From a virus (taxonomy: Duplodnaviria; Caudoviricetes): 43,308 nt of DNA. How positions within the stretch are numbered: position 1 is the first letter of the stretch; every line of letters begins with the position of its first letter. The stretch spans positions 1 to 43,308 of the IMG/VR virus record IMGVR_UViG_3300048998_000214. One strand, given 5' to 3'. The position numbers and the translations under genes are program-made. Under the pieces are notes generated by a model. That model had not been told where the DNA came from. It ran no database searches and saw only the letters and a list, made by a program, of their open reading frames with translations. Below are positions 1,109-43,308 of the stretch, in pieces.

Positions 1109-2245
1109 ATGTCCATTGAGGCCATCGCGGCTCCAGCCGCGCCTACTCTTGTGGTCCCGCGCTACTTGCGACTTCCTGCGATCTTCGCCGCTTGCCTCGT
1201 GATCGCGACCGTGGTGCCGTTCTTCGCGGGTGCGCTCAGCGGGCAATACAAGGGCTCCTATGTTCCGCTGCAATGGACGATCACGCTGTTGGCGACGATC
1301 CATGTGCCGATGACGCTCTATCTGCTATTCGATGCCAGGGTACGCGAGCGCATGTATCAGCAGCCGTTGCTACTGATCGGCGTGCCAATCCTGCTCATCG
1401 GCATCAGCCTGTTTGCTTTCAGCTACCTCGGTGCCCTGATGCCGGAAGGCAGGAACTGGCCGCTGGTCTATCTGCTTTGCGCCATGACGGTCTGGCAGAC
1501 TTGGCATTTCGGCAAGCAGAACCTTGGAGTCTATTCGTTCATGCGGATCGCGCAGTCCGCCGGCAGCATGGCTAAGATTGACCGTCATATGATCATCGGC
1601 GGTGCGACCCTCGGTGCCATAAGCGGCGTGCTGTCGATGTCGATTTACACGAGCTACGCCCCGCAATCGGACCTGGGCTTTTTGAGCGCCCACAACGACG
1701 TGATCTTTATGATTGGATCGTGGCTGCAATACGCGCTCGCCGCAGCATCGGTCGTCTATGTGGTGCTGCGGTATCGCAAGTTCACACTAGGGACCGGACT
1801 AATCTTTCTGCTTTCCGTGAACTTTTTTCTGCCGACATATCTGACCGGGGATGCGCGAGCATTCTCCAATGTGTTTGCCTGTAGTGCGCTCGGTCATGGG
1901 ACTCAGTATTGCGTGTTCCTGGCCTTCCATGCTGGAGGTCATGACAGCGGCGAGATCGGCCCAAGACGATGGGTGATGCCTGTTATCTTGATCCTCGTCA
2001 CGGCGCTGACCTCAGAACTATTTATCCTGCATTGGATCGTACCGGAGTTCTGGGTCGGCAGCGTGATCGCCAGATTGATTGGCTATGGCAGCGGCGGGTC
2101 GCTTTGGCTTGGACTGGTGATCGGGGTAACGCTGGTGCATTTCTGGCTGGACTCGTTCTTATGGCGGTTCAAAGATTCGACCGCGCGAACCTGGATGATG
2201 CAACGGTATGCATTCCTTTTTCCTATCAAACGTAATGTTCAATGA
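1109..2245 (+). CDS. Multi-pass membrane protein with four His-containing motifs (accessory gene)
   Basis: 378 aa, about 9-10 hydrophobic segments; IHVPMT, WHFGKQN, GHGTQY, VHFWLD; opposite strand to late genes; visibly more AT-rich. Confidence 0.85.
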   Translation: MSIEAIAAPAAPTLVVPRYLRLPAIFAACLVIATVVPFFAGALSGQYKGSYVPLQWTITLLATIHVPMTLYLLFDARVRERMYQQPLLLIGVPILLIGISLFAFSYLGALMPEGRNWPLVYLLCAMTVWQTWHFGKQNLGVYSFMRIAQSAGSMAKIDRHMIIGGATLGAISGVLSMSIYTSYAPQSDLGFLSAHNDVIFMIGSWLQYALAAASVVYVVLRYRKFTLGTGLIFLLSVNFFLPTYLTGDARAFSNVFACSALGHGTQYCVFLAFHAGGHDSGEIGPRRWVMPVILILVTALTSELFILHWIVPEFWVGSVIARLIGYGSGGSLWLGLVIGVTLVHFWLDSFLWRFKDSTARTWMMQRYAFLFPIKRNVQ

Positions 2246-16552: not shown

Positions 16553-17100
16553 GGGCGCGCCTCCGCTCGCAGCCAGTCTTCGGCGATCAGCACGATCTCG
16601 CGCGCGTCATCGACGTCGATGCCGAGGAACGGCCGCGCCGGGATGTGCGTCGTGTGCGCGCCGACCGCGACCTCCTGCGCATGCGTGGCCTTGCCCTTCT
16701 TAACAAAGCCCGACAGCTTGCCGGTGCTCTTGTTGACTTTGCGGTGAACCGTTTGCGTGCGCGCCGGATGCGCGATGTCGCCGCCGAATTGATGGATCGC
16801 GGCATAGATCACATTGCTGCCGACCTCGACGCCGGACTCGGAGGCAATGAACGTGATGGACTGCATAAGCCGCGCGGTATCGACCAGCGTCTTGCCGCCG
16901 GTTGCCAGTGCGCGCAGCGACGGCGGCCAGGGCGAGCCGCCCGGTTCGGTGCCGGTCTCGAAGCGGCGTTGCGTCGAGGCGACCAGCGACGCCCCGATGC
17001 GCTCGAACATGCCGCGCGGATTTCCGGCACGCGCCACCAGGCGGCCGAGCTCCTGCAGCGCCGCATCCTGACCGGTGATCCTGACGCCGGCGCCGCTCAT
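16549..17100 (-). CDS. Virion morphogenesis protein (Mu gpG-like)
   Basis: RRFETGTEPGGSPW, VGSNVIYAAIHQFGG, IPARPFLG motifs. Confidence 0.9.
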   Translation of the reverse strand: MSGAGVRITGQDAALQELGRLVARAGNPRGMFERIGASLVASTQRRFETGTEPGGSPWPPSLRALATGGKTLVDTARLMQSITFIASESGVEVGSNVIYAAIHQFGGDIAHPARTQTVHRKVNKSTGKLSGFVKKGKATHAQEVAVGAHTTHIPARPFLGIDVDDAREIVLIAEDWLRAEARP

Positions 17101-17522
17101 ACAAAGCCCTTCAGGTTCTCGGACGTGAACGGCCGTTCGCGATCATTGGTGCGCACGCCAGTGGCGCCGCTCGCGGTCGGCTCGACGCCGGCGACATCGA
17201 GACGCACGATGCCGGCTGCGATGTCGCGCAAGGTGCGCAGCGCATCGTCGTAGTCGCGGCGGATTTTGTCGGAGGCGACATTGCCGTGCAGCTTGTAGAT
17301 CGAGATCGTCAGCGCCAGGTCGCGCACGATCGCCGGCGTCGCGGTCAGCGGCAGCAGATAGCGACCCTTGAGAAATCCATCGATGAAGGCATCGGCGTCG
17401 GCGAGGGCGCGATCGACAACGCTTGTATCGATCGCATCGGCCGCACCGGTACGGTCGGTCAGCTCCATGAGCATGTCCGCGCCGAACCGATCGGTCAGCT
17501 GCTGGAGGGTCGCGTAGCTCAT
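17097..17522 (-). CDS. Head-tail adaptor (Mu gp36 / DUF1320-like)
   Basis: MSYATLQQLTDRFG, ALADADAFIDGFLKGRYLLPL, YDDALRTLRDIAAG. Confidence 0.9.
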   Translation of the reverse strand: MSYATLQQLTDRFGADMLMELTDRTGAADAIDTSVVDRALADADAFIDGFLKGRYLLPLTATPAIVRDLALTISIYKLHGNVASDKIRRDYDDALRTLRDIAAGIVRLDVAGVEPTASGATGVRTNDRERPFTSENLKGFV

Positions 17523-17692
17523 CGCACGATGGCCCGCAGCAGGTCGAGCGCGGCATCGGCAAAACCGAGCGCGAAGCTCACCCCGGTGTCCGCGTCGTTG
17601 GCGTCCACAAAGCCGACGACATCGCGCAGCGACTTGCCTTCGCGGAACGCAGCACGGCCGCGCTCGTAGCTCGGTGCGTCGATCTTGTTCAT
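17519..17692 (-). CDS. 57-aa protein, possible Rmf/CrpP-like fold (not in ORF track)
   Basis: My translation: MNKIDAPSYERGRAAFREGKSLRDVVGFVDANDADTGVSFALGFADAALDLLRAIVR; ATGA overlaps at both ends. Confidence 0.65.
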   Translation of the reverse strand: MNKIDAPSYERGRAAFREGKSLRDVVGFVDANDADTGVSFALGFADAALDLLRAIVR

Positions 17693-17922
17693 GACGCGCG
17701 GCTCTCCAGAAAGCGGACGGCATCGCCGACTGTGTGAAACGTCTCGATGGTGGCGTCATCGATCTCGCAGTTGAATGCTTCCTCGAATGCCATCACGATT
17801 TCGATGCGCTCCAGATCATCGGCGCCGAGGTCTTCGCAGAAGGTCGCTTCGTCGGTCACCTTGTCGGCCACGACCTTGAGGTGCTTGACGATGATCTCCT
17901 TGGCGCGCGCGCCGATGCTCAT
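17689..17922 (-). CDS. Acyl carrier protein homologue lacking the phosphopantetheine serine
   Basis: 77 aa aligning end to end with AcpP, but DLGADDLERIEIVMAFEEAF replaces DLGADSLDTVELVMA.EEEF; also has TVGDAV. Confidence 0.9.
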   Translation of the reverse strand: MSIGARAKEIIVKHLKVVADKVTDEATFCEDLGADDLERIEIVMAFEEAFNCEIDDATIETFHTVGDAVRFLESRAS

Positions 17923-17936
17923 CAGCTCATTCCGGG

Positions 17937-18182
17937 TTAGGCCTTGCGGACTTCGACGGTCGCGCTCGTCACGTCGTAAGAGTCCTTGTTCGGCACGTCG
18001 CACAGATGCCCGTAGCCGGTGACGGTCACGCGCACGTCTTCGCCATAGCGAGCGGCCAGACCATCGATGCCCGCGGCGACGTAGTCCTTGATCGACTGCG
18101 GCGCCGTGTTGGTGGCAAGCAACCGCTTCGCCTCGACGGCCGGCTGCGACTTGATTTCCGGATAGGTCAAATTCCAGCTCAC
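17937..18182 (-). CDS. 81-aa hypothetical protein
   Basis: GTG start behind a strong AGGAGGAG RBS; MSWNLTYPEIKSQPAVEAK. Confidence 0.75.
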   Translation of the reverse strand: MSWNLTYPEIKSQPAVEAKRLLATNTAPQSIKDYVAAGIDGLAARYGEDVRVTVTGYGHLCDVPNKDSYDVTSATVEVRKA

Positions 18183-18205
18183 GATTTGCTCCTCCTGCGT
18201 TGCGA

Positions 18206-18233
18206 AAGGCCGGGCCAGATTGAGCCCGGCCTT
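18206..18233. terminator. Intergenic hairpin downstream of the capsid genes
   Basis: AAGGCCGGGC-N8-GCCCGGCCTT, a perfect 10-bp stem. Confidence 0.5.
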
Positions 18234-18267
18234 CAAATGACGTGCGCCCGCGACGCGGACGAAGAAT

Positions 18268-18615
18268 TCAGCCCGCCGACGGCGCGAGCGCGGCGTCGAT
18301 CTCGGCGCGCGACGTGTCGAAGCCGACGATCTTGGCGAGCGCCGCAATCTTCGGCTTGCCATCGGCGGTCAGGTCATCGGCGCCAAGCGTCGCCACCGCA
18401 GCGCGGATCGCCGCATCACGGCCGGCCTGGTCGAGAGCGGCGGCCTTCTCGGCGGCGAGATCGACGATCGCAACCAGGAGGTTGGGATCGCCGAACAGCT
18501 GGTCGAACTGTGCGCTGCTGAAAGCCTCGATCGGATGATCGACGGCCTGCTTGAAGTGCGCGATGCCGGCGCGGCGGTAGCCGTCGCGGCGAGCGCTGAT
18601 GCGGAGGACCTTCAT
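18268..18615 (-). CDS. Mu gp35 / HI1506-like protein
   Basis: LRISARRDGYRRAGIAH, L.DPNL.V, TADGKPKIAAL...SRAEID; directly after the capsid gene. Confidence 0.8.
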   Translation of the reverse strand: MKVLRISARRDGYRRAGIAHFKQAVDHPIEAFSSAQFDQLFGDPNLLVAIVDLAAEKAAALDQAGRDAAIRAAVATLGADDLTADGKPKIAALAKIVGFDTSRAEIDAALAPSAG

Positions 18616-18629
18616 GCCACCGCCCTCCG

Positions 18630-19637
18630 TTACGGCAGCCAGGGCACGACGAGCAGCTCGGCGGTGCCAGCCCAGGGGTTCGACTCGCCGCCGTTGACCA
18701 ACAGCGAGTTGAGCAGCTTGCGGCCGGCGCCCTCATTGGTCGAGCCGACCACCAGCAGATCGGGCTGGTTGCCGAGCGGGCGCGCGTAGTCGCCCTTCAT
18801 GCCGATGATGGCGTTGCGCGCCGTCTCGTAATGCGTGGCGTCGAGCGTCTGCTTCGAACCCCAGGCGAATTGCCAGAAGCCATAGCCGACATTGCCGCGC
18901 GCATCGGAGCCGTAGATGAATTCCTTGTTCATGAACACGTTGTCGTCGTCGAGCTTGTCCTTGGCGACGAACTGGAAATCGCGGCGCTTCTGCAGGATGA
19001 TCGGCTTCAGCACGCGCTTGGTGCAGAGCAGATACCAGGCCGCGCCGGAGCCGCCATCGGTGTTGGCGACCGACTGCGGCACGCCGGCGGCATCGAGCAC
19101 CGGATGATCGGTGTCGAAATAGAACTGGCCGTCGTAGCAGGTCTTGCTGAAGCCGTCGGAGACGCACTGCCACACCATGCGCTCCCACTCCGAGCCGGTG
19201 GACTCGCCCATCTGCTGAAACAGCGTGCCGTAGATGCCGAGATTATCGGTCTCGATGTCGTCGCGGTCGACGCCGATGGTCAGCTCCAGCGCCTTCTCCT
19301 TGATGGAGTAGTCGTGCTGCGCCAAGTTCTGCACGACGCGGGGACCGATCCATTCGCGCACGCCCGGCATCTTGCCGAGCCAGCCGTATTTCTGCTCCTT
19401 GGTGGTCGACGGCACGACGGTCGCGACCCGCGTATATTGCGTGGGCGCGACGCCGAGCCCTTGGTCGAAAGCCGTGCTGAAGGTGACGCGCAGGCTGTCG
19501 AGATTGCCGGCGTTCACGAGCATCGCCATGGTGACGCCGGCGCCGACATCGTGCGCCGGGGCGAGCATCGCGATAGCGACAACAAGGCACACGATCACGG
19601 CGACCGTCAGCGCCAGGTGAAGGGATTTAAGCATCAA
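18630..19637 (-). CDS. Major capsid protein (Mu gpT family) with hydrophobic N-terminal extension
   Basis: YGWLGKMPGVREWIGPR, ELTIGVDRDDIETD, CYDGQFYFDTDHPV, GYGFWQFAWGS; AGGAG RBS at 19644-19648. Confidence 0.95.
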   Translation of the reverse strand: MMLKSLHLALTVAVIVCLVVAIAMLAPAHDVGAGVTMAMLVNAGNLDSLRVTFSTAFDQGLGVAPTQYTRVATVVPSTTKEQKYGWLGKMPGVREWIGPRVVQNLAQHDYSIKEKALELTIGVDRDDIETDNLGIYGTLFQQMGESTGSEWERMVWQCVSDGFSKTCYDGQFYFDTDHPVLDAAGVPQSVANTDGGSGAAWYLLCTKRVLKPIILQKRRDFQFVAKDKLDDDNVFMNKEFIYGSDARGNVGYGFWQFAWGSKQTLDATHYETARNAIIGMKGDYARPLGNQPDLLVVGSTNEGAGRKLLNSLLVNGGESNPWAGTAELLVVPWLP

Positions 19638-23002: not shown

Positions 23003-24597
23003 TGCGCCGCCGCCTCGTGCGTGATCTCGGCGCGGCCGGACAGATCGGCCATCACCATCGCCATGCTCATCAGCTCGGCGAAGCGATCCTTCGGCACCTG
23101 CAGCTTTTCCAGCCCGGCGCTCAATTCGGCGAAGCTGTGCGAACGGTTCACCAATGCGCGCACGGCATTGATCATCGCGTCGACGCCGGGCGCGACCACG
23201 TGCTCGGCCGCATCGGCAAGATGATCGACGGCATCGGTGGCGCGCACCGCGATTTGTGAATCATTGACCGCGTGCAGCGTGGCGCGGGCTGCATCGGTGG
23301 TGCCGGGCAGCGGCAACGCTGTTTGACCGGGCAATGCAGGCGGTGCTGGCTTCGGCGCTTCGAGCAGCTCGGCGCCGTCATCGGGATCGGCGAGGCCGAG
23401 CAGGTCGCGGATTTCGCTCTGCTGCACTTTGAGACCGAGCGGCACCAGCTTCTCCACGCCATCGATCACCAGCGCGATGTTCTTTTCTTCGGTGCGGCCA
23501 ACCTTCAGCTTCGGATATTTTTCTTGCGGGCCATATTCGAGATCAATCCACGGCCGCACCAGGTCGCGATTGAGAATGGCGGACAGCACGCGCGCGTCGG
23601 AACGCTCGATGTCCTCCTGCACCTGGCGGTGCTCCTGGCCGACCGCATGGCCGCCGGCGATCGCGTCGGTGGTGGCGGTCTGGCCGAGCACCGCCTTGGA
23701 GATCTGTCGGTCGAGCCAGTTGGCACGCTTCTCGAACAGGTCGGAACCGGCGCCGACGTTCTTCGACTCGATGAAGTCGAGGACCATCGAGTCGGGAATG
23801 ATCGCGGCGCAGTCGCCGGCGATGTTGGCGACGGCGCGGAACAGCGTATCCTTGTCGGCTTCGGTGGTGCCGCTCGGATATTTGCCAACCCGCACCGGCT
23901 GCCCGAACGTCTGCGCGAAGATCGCCCAGTCGCGCAGCGTGAAGGCCTTGAACATCCACGACCAGGCGGCGAGGCGCGCCAGCCCCGAGCGCACCGGCAA
24001 TCCCGACTTGGCGCGGATCACCGCTTGAATGAATTTCATCGGCGGCAGCGGCAGGAAGCCGGCCACGTCGCGCAGCTGCGGCGTCACGCCATCGACGCGG
24101 TCGAAGCGGAACCAACGCGGGTCGCGCCAGGCGAGCTTGCCCGGACGCCATTGCCCCATCGACGTGTCCCAGATGATCTCGGTGAAGGAGACGCCCTTAC
24201 CGATGCAGTCGAGAATGTCGAACAACTCATCCTGCAGCTCGTCGCGATCGAGCCAGGCGCGCACCGTGTCGGCGTGCTTGACGTGCTCGGCATTGTCGGA
24301 GGCGGCGTCGACCTTCACTTCGAGCTGCGCGATCGAGCGCTTGCGGGTGCCGAGCACGCCGGCATAGTGCAGGTCGCGTTCCTCGATCTGCTCGGCCAAC
24401 TCGAAATAGCGCAGCGGCTCGCCCTGATCGGCTTCGCGCAGCAGTGCTGCCAGCCGGCGCGGGTTGAGCCCATCGCCCGGATAACCGGAATAGGGCGAGC
24501 GCACGCCCGTGATCGTCGGCGCCGCAATCTCTTGCGTCAGCACCGCGCGCTCGATCGGACGGTTGAATTGATCGTAGAGGATCGGCTTGTCAGCCAC
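22999..24597 (-). CDS. Portal protein (Mu gp29 / DUF935)
   Basis: EERDLHYAGVLGTRK, DWAIFAQTFGQPVRVGKY, ISKAVLGQTATT. Confidence 0.95.
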   Translation of the reverse strand: MADKPILYDQFNRPIERAVLTQEIAAPTITGVRSPYSGYPGDGLNPRRLAALLREADQGEPLRYFELAEQIEERDLHYAGVLGTRKRSIAQLEVKVDAASDNAEHVKHADTVRAWLDRDELQDELFDILDCIGKGVSFTEIIWDTSMGQWRPGKLAWRDPRWFRFDRVDGVTPQLRDVAGFLPLPPMKFIQAVIRAKSGLPVRSGLARLAAWSWMFKAFTLRDWAIFAQTFGQPVRVGKYPSGTTEADKDTLFRAVANIAGDCAAIIPDSMVLDFIESKNVGAGSDLFEKRANWLDRQISKAVLGQTATTDAIAGGHAVGQEHRQVQEDIERSDARVLSAILNRDLVRPWIDLEYGPQEKYPKLKVGRTEEKNIALVIDGVEKLVPLGLKVQQSEIRDLLGLADPDDGAELLEAPKPAPPALPGQTALPLPGTTDAARATLHAVNDSQIAVRATDAVDHLADAAEHVVAPGVDAMINAVRALVNRSHSFAELSAGLEKLQVPKDRFAELMSMAMVMADLSGRAEITHEAAAQ

Positions 24598-24766
24598 TGG
24601 CTTTCTCCGCTCGCTTGTCGGCGACGATGGCCGCGCATTGATCGACGCAGTTGTCGCAAATGTAGACCGATGGGCCGGAGAGCAGCAGCATGACTTCGCT
24701 TTGCGCCCGGCCGCAGAATGAGCAGTAGAGCGTGCGCCGCAGCGGCGTGACGTTGCTGCTGCTCAT
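24590..24766 (-). CDS. Stand-alone ClpX C4-type zinc-finger domain protein
   Basis: 58 aa, [33 protein letters not shown] versus ClpX [32 protein letters not shown]; ATGA-coupled to terL. Confidence 0.9.
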   Translation of the reverse strand: [58 protein letters not shown]

Positions 24767-30921: not shown

Positions 30922-31142
30922 GCGAGCACGAGACCTCGCACGGTGAAGGTGATGGTCGAGAGAATGTCAGCGCGTTTGCGCCACACCAGGCGTGCGGTGT
31001 AGCTGCCGTCGCGGCATTGCCAGAGCCGCGCGCTGGAGCGGACGTAGCCCTTGCCGACCCACATCGCATCCGATTCCGCGAGCCCGGTGTCGGCCGCGAG
31101 AACACGATCCATGTCGATGACCAGGCGGCGCGCGCGTGTCAT
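30918..31142 (-). CDS. Hypothetical protein
   Basis: 74 aa from an ATG overlapping the gcrA stop (ATGA); also ATGA-coupled to the Mor/C gene. Confidence 0.65.
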   Translation of the reverse strand: MTRARRLVIDMDRVLAADTGLAESDAMWVGKGYVRSSARLWQCRDGSYTARLVWRKRADILSTITFTVRGLVLA

Positions 31143-31651
31143 GCGTGCCGCCCGATCCATGACGAGCTCACCGGCCGCTTGCCGAAGCCGGCGCCGACCC
31201 GGCAGGCGTGATCGGCGCAATAGGGAGAGTCCTCGAAGGTCTGCGCGCCGCAGAAAAAGAAACCCGCATCATGCGGATCGCCGACCGGATAGCGGCAAGT
31301 CTCGTCGGTCAGCTGCAGCAAGGTGCGGCGCTGTTCGACCGGGATCTGTGAGTCATCGAACTCCGGCAGCGGCTCCGCTTCAATTCCAGCCGCGGTCAAT
31401 GGGTCGGCGAATTCGCCCATCGCGGCACGGCGCATGCGTGCGGCCCGCGCGAGCTGCGGCTTACGCGGTCGCGGTATTCGGGCTGCTCGTGGCGTGCGTA
31501 CCTTGACGCGGCCGGAAAGACCGAGGCGGTGCACCTTGCCAATGATGGCATTGCGCGTGACGCCGCCCAGCTCGGCGGCGATCTCGCTGCAGGACAGCCC
31601 GTCCGCCCACAGCGTCTTAAGCCGTTCGACGCGCGATTGGTCCCAGCTCAT
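31139..31651 (-). CDS. gcrA: GcrA-family cell-cycle regulator homologue
   Basis: MSWDQSRVERLKTLWADGLSCSEIAAELGGVTRNAIIGKVHRLGLSGR and LLQLTDETCRYPVGDP...FFFCG...PYCADH. Confidence 0.93.
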   Translation of the reverse strand: MSWDQSRVERLKTLWADGLSCSEIAAELGGVTRNAIIGKVHRLGLSGRVKVRTPRAARIPRPRKPQLARAARMRRAAMGEFADPLTAAGIEAEPLPEFDDSQIPVEQRRTLLQLTDETCRYPVGDPHDAGFFFCGAQTFEDSPYCADHACRVGAGFGKRPVSSSWIGRHA

Positions 31652-32045
31652 CGTTGTCTCCTTTGGTGTTGAGCGATTGCAGGCGCGGCAGCGCACGCAC
31701 TTCGCGTTCGAACGGAATGAGGGATTTCAGGAGGGCATGCAGGTCGGCGAGCCGGCGGGCGTCGTTGAGCATTTCGACGTAGCCGGCCATGGTGCCGGGG
31801 AAACTGCCGAGCAGGCAGACGCGCTGCGCGAACACGGCCGCGAGATCGACCTGAAACACCTGGTGATGCAGTTCCTCGCGCAGCAACACGGCGAGTTCGG
31901 CGAAGCTCGACTCCTGCCGATCGGCGAGCAGCCGATCGAACAGCGCCTTGCTGCGCTCCAGGTGCGCGTTCCAGTCCTCGGTCGTGAGCCCGACATTCTG
32001 CGCGCGTCGCAGGACTAGTTCTTGCTGGTAGCTGTATTCGTCCAC
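31617..32045 (-). CDS. Hypothetical protein
   Basis: GTG start behind AAGGGGGG; 142 aa, helical. Confidence 0.65.
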   Translation of the reverse strand: MDEYSYQQELVLRRAQNVGLTTEDWNAHLERSKALFDRLLADRQESSFAELAVLLREELHHQVFQVDLAAVFAQRVCLLGSFPGTMAGYVEMLNDARRLADLHALLKSLIPFEREVRALPRLQSLNTKGDNDELGPIARRTA

Positions 32046-42893: not shown

Positions 42894-43308
42894 GCCAGGG
42901 CGGCGCGTCGGCGTCCCGATTGTGTGCATAGGCAATCCGACCGTTGGCGGAGCCGGCAAGACGCCGCTCGCGTTGGCGGTCGTGCGCATGCTGGCGGCCG
43001 CGCGCGAGCAGCCGGCATTGCTCAGCCGCGGTTATGGGGGCAGCCTCTCGGGTCCGGTGCAGGTTGGCCCGGCGCGGCACCGGGCGGCCGATGTCGGCGA
43101 CGAGCCCCTTCTGCTTGCCCGCGTGGCGCCGACAATCGTCGCGCGTGATCGGACAAAGGGCGCAGCGATGGCACTGACCGCGGGTGCAGGCGTTATCGTC
43201 ATGGACGATGGCTTCCAGAACTCCGCGCTCATGAAAGATTTTTCCGTCCTGGTGGTGGATGCGCGGCGGGGTCTGGGCAACGGCGCGGTCATTCCGGCCG
43301 GTCCGTTA
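42894..43308 (+). pseudogene. lpxK: Host tetraacyldisaccharide 4'-kinase, 5' part cut off by the phage end, runs off the window
   Basis: PGRRVGVPIVCIGNPTVGGAGKTP, LSRGYGG, VGDEPLLLA, MDDGFQN, GNG.VIPAGPL; in-frame TAA at 42889 inside the phage end, so no fusion start. Confidence 0.92.

Follow-up and report, generated by a model that had tools for sequence, protein, structure and literature searches.

The closest described relatives of the protein considered here are the acyl carrier proteins (ACPs) of bacterial type II fatty acid synthesis, AcpP (PF00550; TIGR00517; NF002151), with which it shares a four-helix fold (TM ~0.9), the DLGAD loop, several acidic residues of helix II and a length of 77 aa. 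In these proteins, loading by the PPTase route requires the hydroxyl of a Ser (PMC9542644, PMC3340395). Stand-alone ACP genes are also borne by phages, where they are referred to as auxiliary metabolic genes (PHROG 5934; the acpP of roseobacter prophages, PMC8224337; the ACPs of jumbo phages). The jumbo-phage versions from fHe-Yen9-03, XbC2 and HRDY3 all keep the Ser. Two further kinds of protein invite comparison. The first comprises two E. coli proteins that are likewise unloadable ACP bodies, namely apo-ACP and an engineered version, ACP(S36T), the latter being reported as non-functional as a carrier (PMC3340395). The second is an ACP look-alike from the Serratia phages phiMAM1 and Kevin (Ackermannviridae), which has Glu at the Ser position, an acidic helix II and Arg39, and is annotated as 'acyl carrier protein'. 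In print, phage ACP genes figure as auxiliary metabolic genes or as plain annotations (PMC8224337, 10.64898/2026.04.22.720137, PMC3220722, PMC10892097), and loss of the Ser is not mentioned in the accessible portions of these sources. We found no description of serine-less phage ACPs in the literature searched, which covered few subscription journals.

The stretch of DNA that we analyzed (hereinafter the window) spans 43.3 kb and constitutes a transposable prophage of the Mu-like kind, with genes for MuA, MuB, gp27, portal, gpF, protease I, gpT, gp35, gp36 and tail proteins, all on the minus strand; it represents a temperate Mu-like phage of soil Alphaproteobacteria. Translation of its minus strand at 17689..17922 gives a 77-aa protein with DLGADDLERIEIVMA, and direct reading of codon 36 (17815..17817, minus strand) gives GAT, i.e., Asp at the phosphopantetheine-attachment position; the original prediction of an intact AcpP-like frame with this codon was thus borne out. 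We term this protein the pseudo-ACP. It matches the Pfam PP-binding domain (PF00550, E 4.6e-10) and phrog_5934 (E 1.7e-15), and lies above the NCBIfam 'acyl carrier protein' cut-offs (TIGR00517, 74.8 > 70.45; NF002151, 94.6 > 92), and is therefore expected to be annotated as a normal ACP. Its numbering corresponds one-to-one with that of PDB 1acp (3-73 to 3-73). In an AF2 model (pLDDT 91.9, pTM 0.80) the helices span residues 3-15, 36-50, 56-59 and 65-76, with residue 36 as the first of helix II, and the best 50 PDB matches recovered with Foldseek are all ACP-containing entries (TM 0.82-0.96). A longer, 104-aa version with a GTG start (17689-18003) was rejected, as it overlaps the upstream gene and homologues are 77-87 aa long. 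We also observed a Met-Ser-stop mini frame at 17922-17930 (minus strand), whose TGA overlaps the start of the pseudo-ACP (ATGAGCTGATG) and which may be due to chance or a duplicated start.

Compared with AcpP, the pseudo-ACP is distinguished by Asp36, Glu38, Arg39, Asp55, Ile59 and Phe62, and is less acidic (net charge -10 versus a median of -14). It retains D35, E38, E41, M44, E47 and E48, with R39 as an added positive charge. The Ser of the DSL motif, which bears 4'-phosphopantetheine, is absent; in the first 93 homologues this column holds 89 Ser, 3 Asp (the query included) and 1 Glu. Without a hydroxyl at residue 36, loading with 4'-phosphopantetheine by the known PPTase route is impossible, in keeping with the earlier view of the protein as a non-carrier. 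Positions 59 and 62, which we take to form the acyl pocket and to be small and aliphatic, respectively, in functional ACPs, also differ: the Ser-bearing ACP hits have A59 in 148/158 and I/L62 in 151/158 cases, and in the pseudo-ACP the pocket is probably filled by Ile59 and Phe62. With the attachment Ser absent, the pseudo-ACP is neither a functional AcpP nor a competent auxiliary metabolic copy of acpP. In this it departs from the phage auxiliary metabolic ACPs, which mostly keep the Ser (at least 120, with ~330 estimated, against 14 non-Ser versions in our motif scans). It differs from apo-ACP and ACP(S36T) in being natural, phage-encoded, acidic at residue 36 and remodelled in helices II and III.

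Whereas cellular AcpP belongs to fatty acid synthesis, the pseudo-ACP gene is part of the late operon of the phage and is flanked by neither fab genes nor a PPTase gene. The head-neck setting proposed for it was confirmed, with the gene order gpT, gp35, ORF-A, pseudo-ACP, ORF-B, gp36, all on the minus strand. The first co-oriented late gene upstream encodes the Mu gpT major head protein (ORF limits 18630..19637, the true start being likely at ~19520; PF10124, E 3.6e-115). The slot is bordered upstream by a Mu gp35-like (FluMu_N) gene (18268..18615; PF17891, E 1.7e-10) and downstream by the gene for the Mu gp36 head-tail adaptor (17097..17522; PF07030, E 9.6e-36). Within it, ORF-A (17937..18182, 81 aa) is an accessory gene of the same slot with a GTG start after GGAGGAG, matched by no Pfam or PHROG family, and ORF-B (17519..17692, 57 aa) is ATGA-coupled to both the pseudo-ACP and gp36. 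The proposed translational coupling of the pseudo-ACP consequently holds on its downstream side (ATGA overlap with ORF-B at 17689-17692) but not upstream, where a 14-nt spacer (17923..17936) with a weak Shine-Dalgarno-like GGA/GAG element follows the TAA of ORF-A. A search with the sigma-70 consensus revealed no promoter-like site in 17000-19000, nor was a terminator-like site found on the coding strand, and the GC3 of the gene (0.82) resembles that of its neighbors (0.82-0.91). As it has neither a detectable promoter or terminator of its own nor an atypical base composition, the pseudo-ACP is an operon-embedded accessory gene rather than a classical moron, and its operon position suggests late expression together with the head genes.

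We then compared the gp35-gp36 interval across 35 gp36-related viral loci and found that its content varies. The pseudo-ACP gene is present in just one of them (L260), making it a rare accessory gene. Homologues of ORF-B occupy the slot without an ACP in three (L264, L276, L279), and another locus (L263) has no ORF-A-like gene by BLAST; since neither ORF travels with the ACP, both were rejected as its partners. Three of the seven sequences scanned carry a tRNA-Met(CAT) in this slot (L260:3563-3634, L263:3533-3609, L276:3551-3626). The orthologue in L260 is found in the same slot and has Ala36, and a prophage in a Hyphomicrobiales metagenome-assembled genome (MAG; L186) has an orthologue at the same position with Glu36. 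Three further Mu-like types carry a slot ACP that keeps the Ser: L362/364/365, which share one identical protein, L080, and L417, whose ACP follows gpT and a gp35-like ORF in a locus with no gp36 match. Phe62 is seen in all six Mu-slot ACP types, L417 having been retrieved with a pattern that requires it. In trees of 71 columns the Ser-bearing Mu-slot ACPs fall outside the clade of the query, a weak hint from sequence that acp genes might have been captured repeatedly into one slot.

Several other features of the window deserve mention. Between the terminase and portal genes, a ClpX C4 zinc-finger domain is encoded on its own (24590-24763, minus strand; PF06689, E 1.4e-17), adding another host hub-protein fragment to the late operon. 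This gene was not found in five related records by a search that was incomplete, as it also missed the host MAG's own clpX. The phage further carries a homologue of the cell-cycle regulator GcrA (31139-31696, minus strand; PF07750, E 3.3e-42). A fragment of host lpxK, the lipid A 4'-kinase gene, lies at the prophage end (42922-43308, plus strand) and is probably just the flank of the Mu insertion; it was matched in three of four genomes, with 69% identity to LpxK of the Hyphomicrobiales MAG and 54-55% to those of two other Alphaproteobacteria. Finally, a low-GC stretch on the opposite strand encodes a 378-aa hydrophobic membrane-type protein (1109-2245, plus strand) with no Pfam or PHROG match.

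To place the pseudo-ACP among its homologues, trees were built with residue 36 left out. Profile searches had contributed P0096 and P0097 (both Ser) as well as P0190 and P0267 (both Glu). The query clade was recovered as six rows (support 99/91) in one tree and as eight rows (93/99) in another, placed among alphaproteobacterial-type AcpPs. The query is 62% identical to the fab-operon acpP of the Hyphomicrobiales draft genome G001, host of the L186 orthologue; AcpS was not found in this draft. The best explanation of these affinities is that the pseudo-ACP is a captured alphaproteobacterial acpP. The six serine-less members, query included, are 47-81% identical to the query and full length at 77-80 aa. 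Across the clade, L15, A26, D31-D35, L37, R39, E47, I54, D56, I59, E60, F62, G66 and D67 are invariant (8/8), whereas among the 158 Ser-bearing ACP hits R39 occurs in one, I/V/L/F59 in seven and F62 in none. Positions 38 (E/D/S/G) and 41 (E/A/R) vary, with E41A in the Ser-bearing P0097 and E41R in P0267.

Residue 36 itself is Asp in two, Glu in three, Ala in one and Ser in two of the eight members. Hence, as far as the sequences tell, Ser36 is dispensable in this clade rather than always replaced, and this weakens a strict phosphate-mimic reading for its members. The best trees require two to three changes for the serine-less state, and one loss of the Ser is also compatible with the AU tests (p 0.158 and p 0.213). 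We infer that dependence on the cofactor was lost first and clade-wide, probably with the pocket filled by I59 and F62, and that position 36 was freed afterwards; the whole clade would accordingly be cofactor-independent. The recurrence of Ser loss, which the original prediction put forward as a check, is seen in the syntenic orthologues with Glu36 and Ala36. The opposite outcome, that close homologues retain the Ser, holds in part, namely for two of the eight clade members and the three other Mu-slot types. Scanning metagenomes with an R39-type motif that left residue 36 free retrieved 57 stretches, of which 55 had Ser, one Asp and one Pro; no Mu head genes adjoined any of them, and no new orthologue was among them; a single-sequence viral scan gave one distant Ser ACP; and a scan with the helix-III signature gave 58 stretches, 13 of them ACP-like. 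The phiMAM1 protein falls outside the eight-member clade in a tree of 71 columns with weak support and few starred branches. The Ackermannviridae with such look-alikes are large lytic phages. In the Mu-like phages the gene is accessory and rare, and residue 36 varies among D, E, A and S in its clade, which, judged from the sequences, may have originated separately, in temperate phages.

Taken together, we consider it likely that the pseudo-ACP is a selected, non-carrier protein binder, and about half of that confidence extends to lipid enzymes as its target. Our preferred reading, adopted by analogy and at somewhat less than even chance, is that it blocks the ACP docking sites of host lipid-synthesis enzymes. 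Under this scenario, an acpP would have been captured from Alphaproteobacteria, keeping the ACP fold and losing the cofactor-bearing Ser36 to Asp. A stable, cargo-free ACP body would be made alongside the late head proteins, and this unloadable mimic would occupy the ACP-docking site of enzymes of the Fab, PlsX or Lpx type, damping membrane and lipid A synthesis before lysis. One precedent, although from E. coli, is that apo-ACP is reported to inhibit glycerol-3-phosphate acyltransferase more than holo-ACP does (review PMC3896788), and the binding partners of ACP include FabZ, FabA and PlsX (PMC3340395). An Arg-rich patch of FabA docks ACP helices II and III (PMC7949117), and a contact between a phage ACP and FabZ has been predicted, the accessible text not giving its Ser state (10.64898/2026.03.01.708874). 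PlsX was found in all four alphaproteobacterial genomes checked. SpoT, one of the partners first suggested, is a poor candidate, as it is reported not to bind apo-ACP (review PMC3896788). Binding of IscS likewise needs Ser36 of ACP (PMC13343975), and both were down-weighted as targets that require the modified Ser36 in E. coli (PMC3896788, PMC13343975). Neither broad mimicry of Fab substrates nor broad titration sits well with R39, the reduced charge or the drift at positions 38 and 41, and host AcpP is so abundant (~100 uM in E. coli; PMC8602292) that it would be hard to out-compete. Because the clade has not preserved acidity at residues 38 and 41 throughout, titration of many partners, as originally envisaged, appears less likely than binding of one or a few.

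Behind this docking block of lipid enzymes we place, as unlikely, a role in counter-defense, whereby the pseudo-ACP would act late in infection as a decoy that binds and neutralizes one host defense or toxin protein needing or watching ACP. A single, changing partner would fit the patchy presence, fast evolution and clade-specific surface (R39, I59, E60, F62) of the protein. Small accessory genes are exchanged at this slot, as illustrated by the tRNA-Met(CAT) and the ORF-B homologues. Phage tRNAs can counter host defenses. In Mu-like phages of Pseudomonas, anti-CRISPR genes are located at accessory sites (PMC4378225), and the stimulation of MukB by AcpP in its apo as well as its holo form (PMC8602292) illustrates cofactor-free action of an ACP; however, MukB was not found in any of the four alphaproteobacterial draft genomes. 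Similarly, the Glu36 ACP domain at the C-terminus of a Trypsin-STAND-TPR protein from Kitasatospora would be consistent with a defense link, but this protein comes from an unrelated phylum. No ACP-dependent anti-phage system was found in the literature searched, nor was a link of ACP to GNAT toxins (TacT).

Less probable still is that the pseudo-ACP is a relic under relaxed constraint, i.e., an acpP captured with its Ser that is losing function, with residue 36 reflecting tolerance in the first turn of helix II and the remaining conservation due to folding alone. The Ser-bearing ACPs in the slot of three other Mu-like types and the interchange of D, E, A and S at the residue that starts helix II in the model are compatible with this. 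So is the rate of change: NG86 dN of the pseudo-ACP is 0.38-0.54 against 0.20-0.21 for gp36, about twice as high at similar third-position identity. However, substitutions avoid the conserved sites. P0001 and P0002 differ at 15/72 sites, with only 1/28 ACP-conserved sites among them (p 0.003); the same test on clade pairs gave p <= 0.003 for five of six, with p 0.085 for P0095/P0097; and site variability tracks ACP conservation (rho -0.52). Purifying selection is accordingly present on the fold. The dN/dS ratio (NG86 0.53-0.88, ML 0.01-0.07) is not fixed, as dS is saturated. The near saturation of orthologue third positions points to long-term preservation of the reading frame, and the full length of all six serine-less members and the fixation of new invariant residues also speak against a relic. 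By these comparisons, selection preserves the fold, though less strictly than it does a structural gene.

To gauge how widespread the serine-less state is, we scanned for the motif LGAD-x-[LMIF]-[DE]xxExxM, counting matches of at least 30 bits as ACP-like. In viral contigs, the motif with a G/C-initial codon at x matched 15 stretches, of which one was dropped and 14 were ACP-like (10 E, 3 D, 1 R), while with an A/T-initial codon it matched at least 120, all Ser among the matches listed (~330 estimated). Genomes were scanned for G/C-initial codons at residue 36, which renders A/T-initial replacements (T, N, C, K and others) invisible; 120 of ~200 loci were covered, with 123 matches, from which 49 below 30 bits and two Ser neighbors were dropped, leaving 72 (33 E, 27 D, 4 R, 4 G, 2 A, 1 H, 1 P). 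In these motif scans combined, 73/86 serine-less ACP-like domains are acidic, and 52/62 clusters at 60% identity are all-acidic. An acid-leaning profile search recovered 16 non-Ser versions among 167 domains, nine of them acidic and the rest including two Thr and two Leu. No gene recurs among the 87 ORFs neighboring the viral D/E pseudo-ACPs at 23 loci.

This census bears on a third alternative, which we regard as very doubtful, namely that the pseudo-ACP is a constitutive holo-ACP mimic that helps rather than blocks, with Asp36 standing in for the cofactor phosphate to supply an ACP-requiring phage or host step, in the manner of ACP and MukB. In its favor, the acidic bias exists even though going from any Ser codon to D or E takes two base changes, a 196-row tree with weak support has 35 changes, three or more of them forced, and a Glu36 ACP is kept in the plsX-acp-rnc operon of gut clostridial MAGs. 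On the other hand, the genome scan is blind to residues with A/T-initial codons, and Ala36 and Ser36 in the same clade imply that an acid is not required there. Acids are preferred at helix starts, and the bias fits this preference as well as it does phosphate mimicry.

The census also brought up serine-less domains in other contexts. A Kitasatospora Trypsin-nSTAND5-TPR protein, with Trypco2 upstream, ends in a Glu36 ACP domain (L194:4902-8498, minus strand; L198:1542-5138, plus strand) and resembles an NLR-type receptor into which a dead ACP has been integrated. The clostridial plsX-acp-rnc operons are those of MAGs L196 and L210, with similar proteins in L202, L216 and L255; a separate Ser ACP was found in three of four such drafts, and a full FabF-like match in none of the four. 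Asp/Glu ACP domains also follow hydrophobic N-termini that by eye resemble signal peptides (L146:4827-5141, L177, L184, L140, L141, L174, L178), and in Rubellimicrobium a version of this type directly follows the true acpP in the fab operon. A cyanobacterial family of ~250-aa proteins has an ACP-like domain with mostly Glu, and also Ala or Gly, at residue 36 (L150, L175, L182, L203, L211 and others).

A virion or assembly accessory, in which the ACP fold would bind gp36 or the head-neck junction, is improbable. The ACP gene does abut gp36 in L186, L260, L362 and L080, and a single putative-ACP peptide was reported when virions of a Vi01-like phage were analyzed by mass spectrometry (PMC10892097); however, that lone peptide may be carry-over, the gene is absent from 34/35 related loci, unrelated genes occupy the same slot, and ORF-B separates the pseudo-ACP from gp36 in the window. 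An error of sequencing or assembly in a normal ACP gene has next to no chance, as the homologues refute it: only one sample is known to contain the DNA (the sole run with it, a soil metagenome with contig depth 12.6 and 0 differences, may be the window's own source rather than independent), but P0002, 81% identical and on another contig, also has DDLER, orthologues lack the Ser independently, and Ser to GAT takes two base changes, much as was argued at the outset. We commit to the block of lipid-enzyme docking ahead of the decoy, relic, helper and virion readings.

Phage ACPs as such are known; what is new here is a clade of mostly serine-less ACPs in temperate Mu-like phages, with an S/A/D/E series at residue 36. 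This natural series at one position in a shared background is suited to a direct test of cofactor-independent ACP roles and of phosphate mimicry. It also bears on annotation, as phage 'acpP' genes are counted as lipid-boosting auxiliary metabolic genes and the pseudo-ACP passes the HMM cut-offs yet cannot be a carrier. In a broader and unlikely scenario, Ser-to-Asp/Glu pseudo-ACPs would be a recurrent, unrecognized class of constitutive holo-ACP mimics, evolved many times by phages (by the temperate Mu-like phages and, independently, by Ackermannviridae and by jumbo phages) for seizing or blinding host machinery that depends on ACP, the same dead domain serving as bait or regulator in bacterial STAND immune receptors, lipoproteins and the plsX operon. 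If such a class of mimics exists, ACP would be a contested hub in phage-host conflict; and if the phage protein does block an ACP docking site, it would indicate a vulnerability of lipid synthesis in Gram-negative bacteria.
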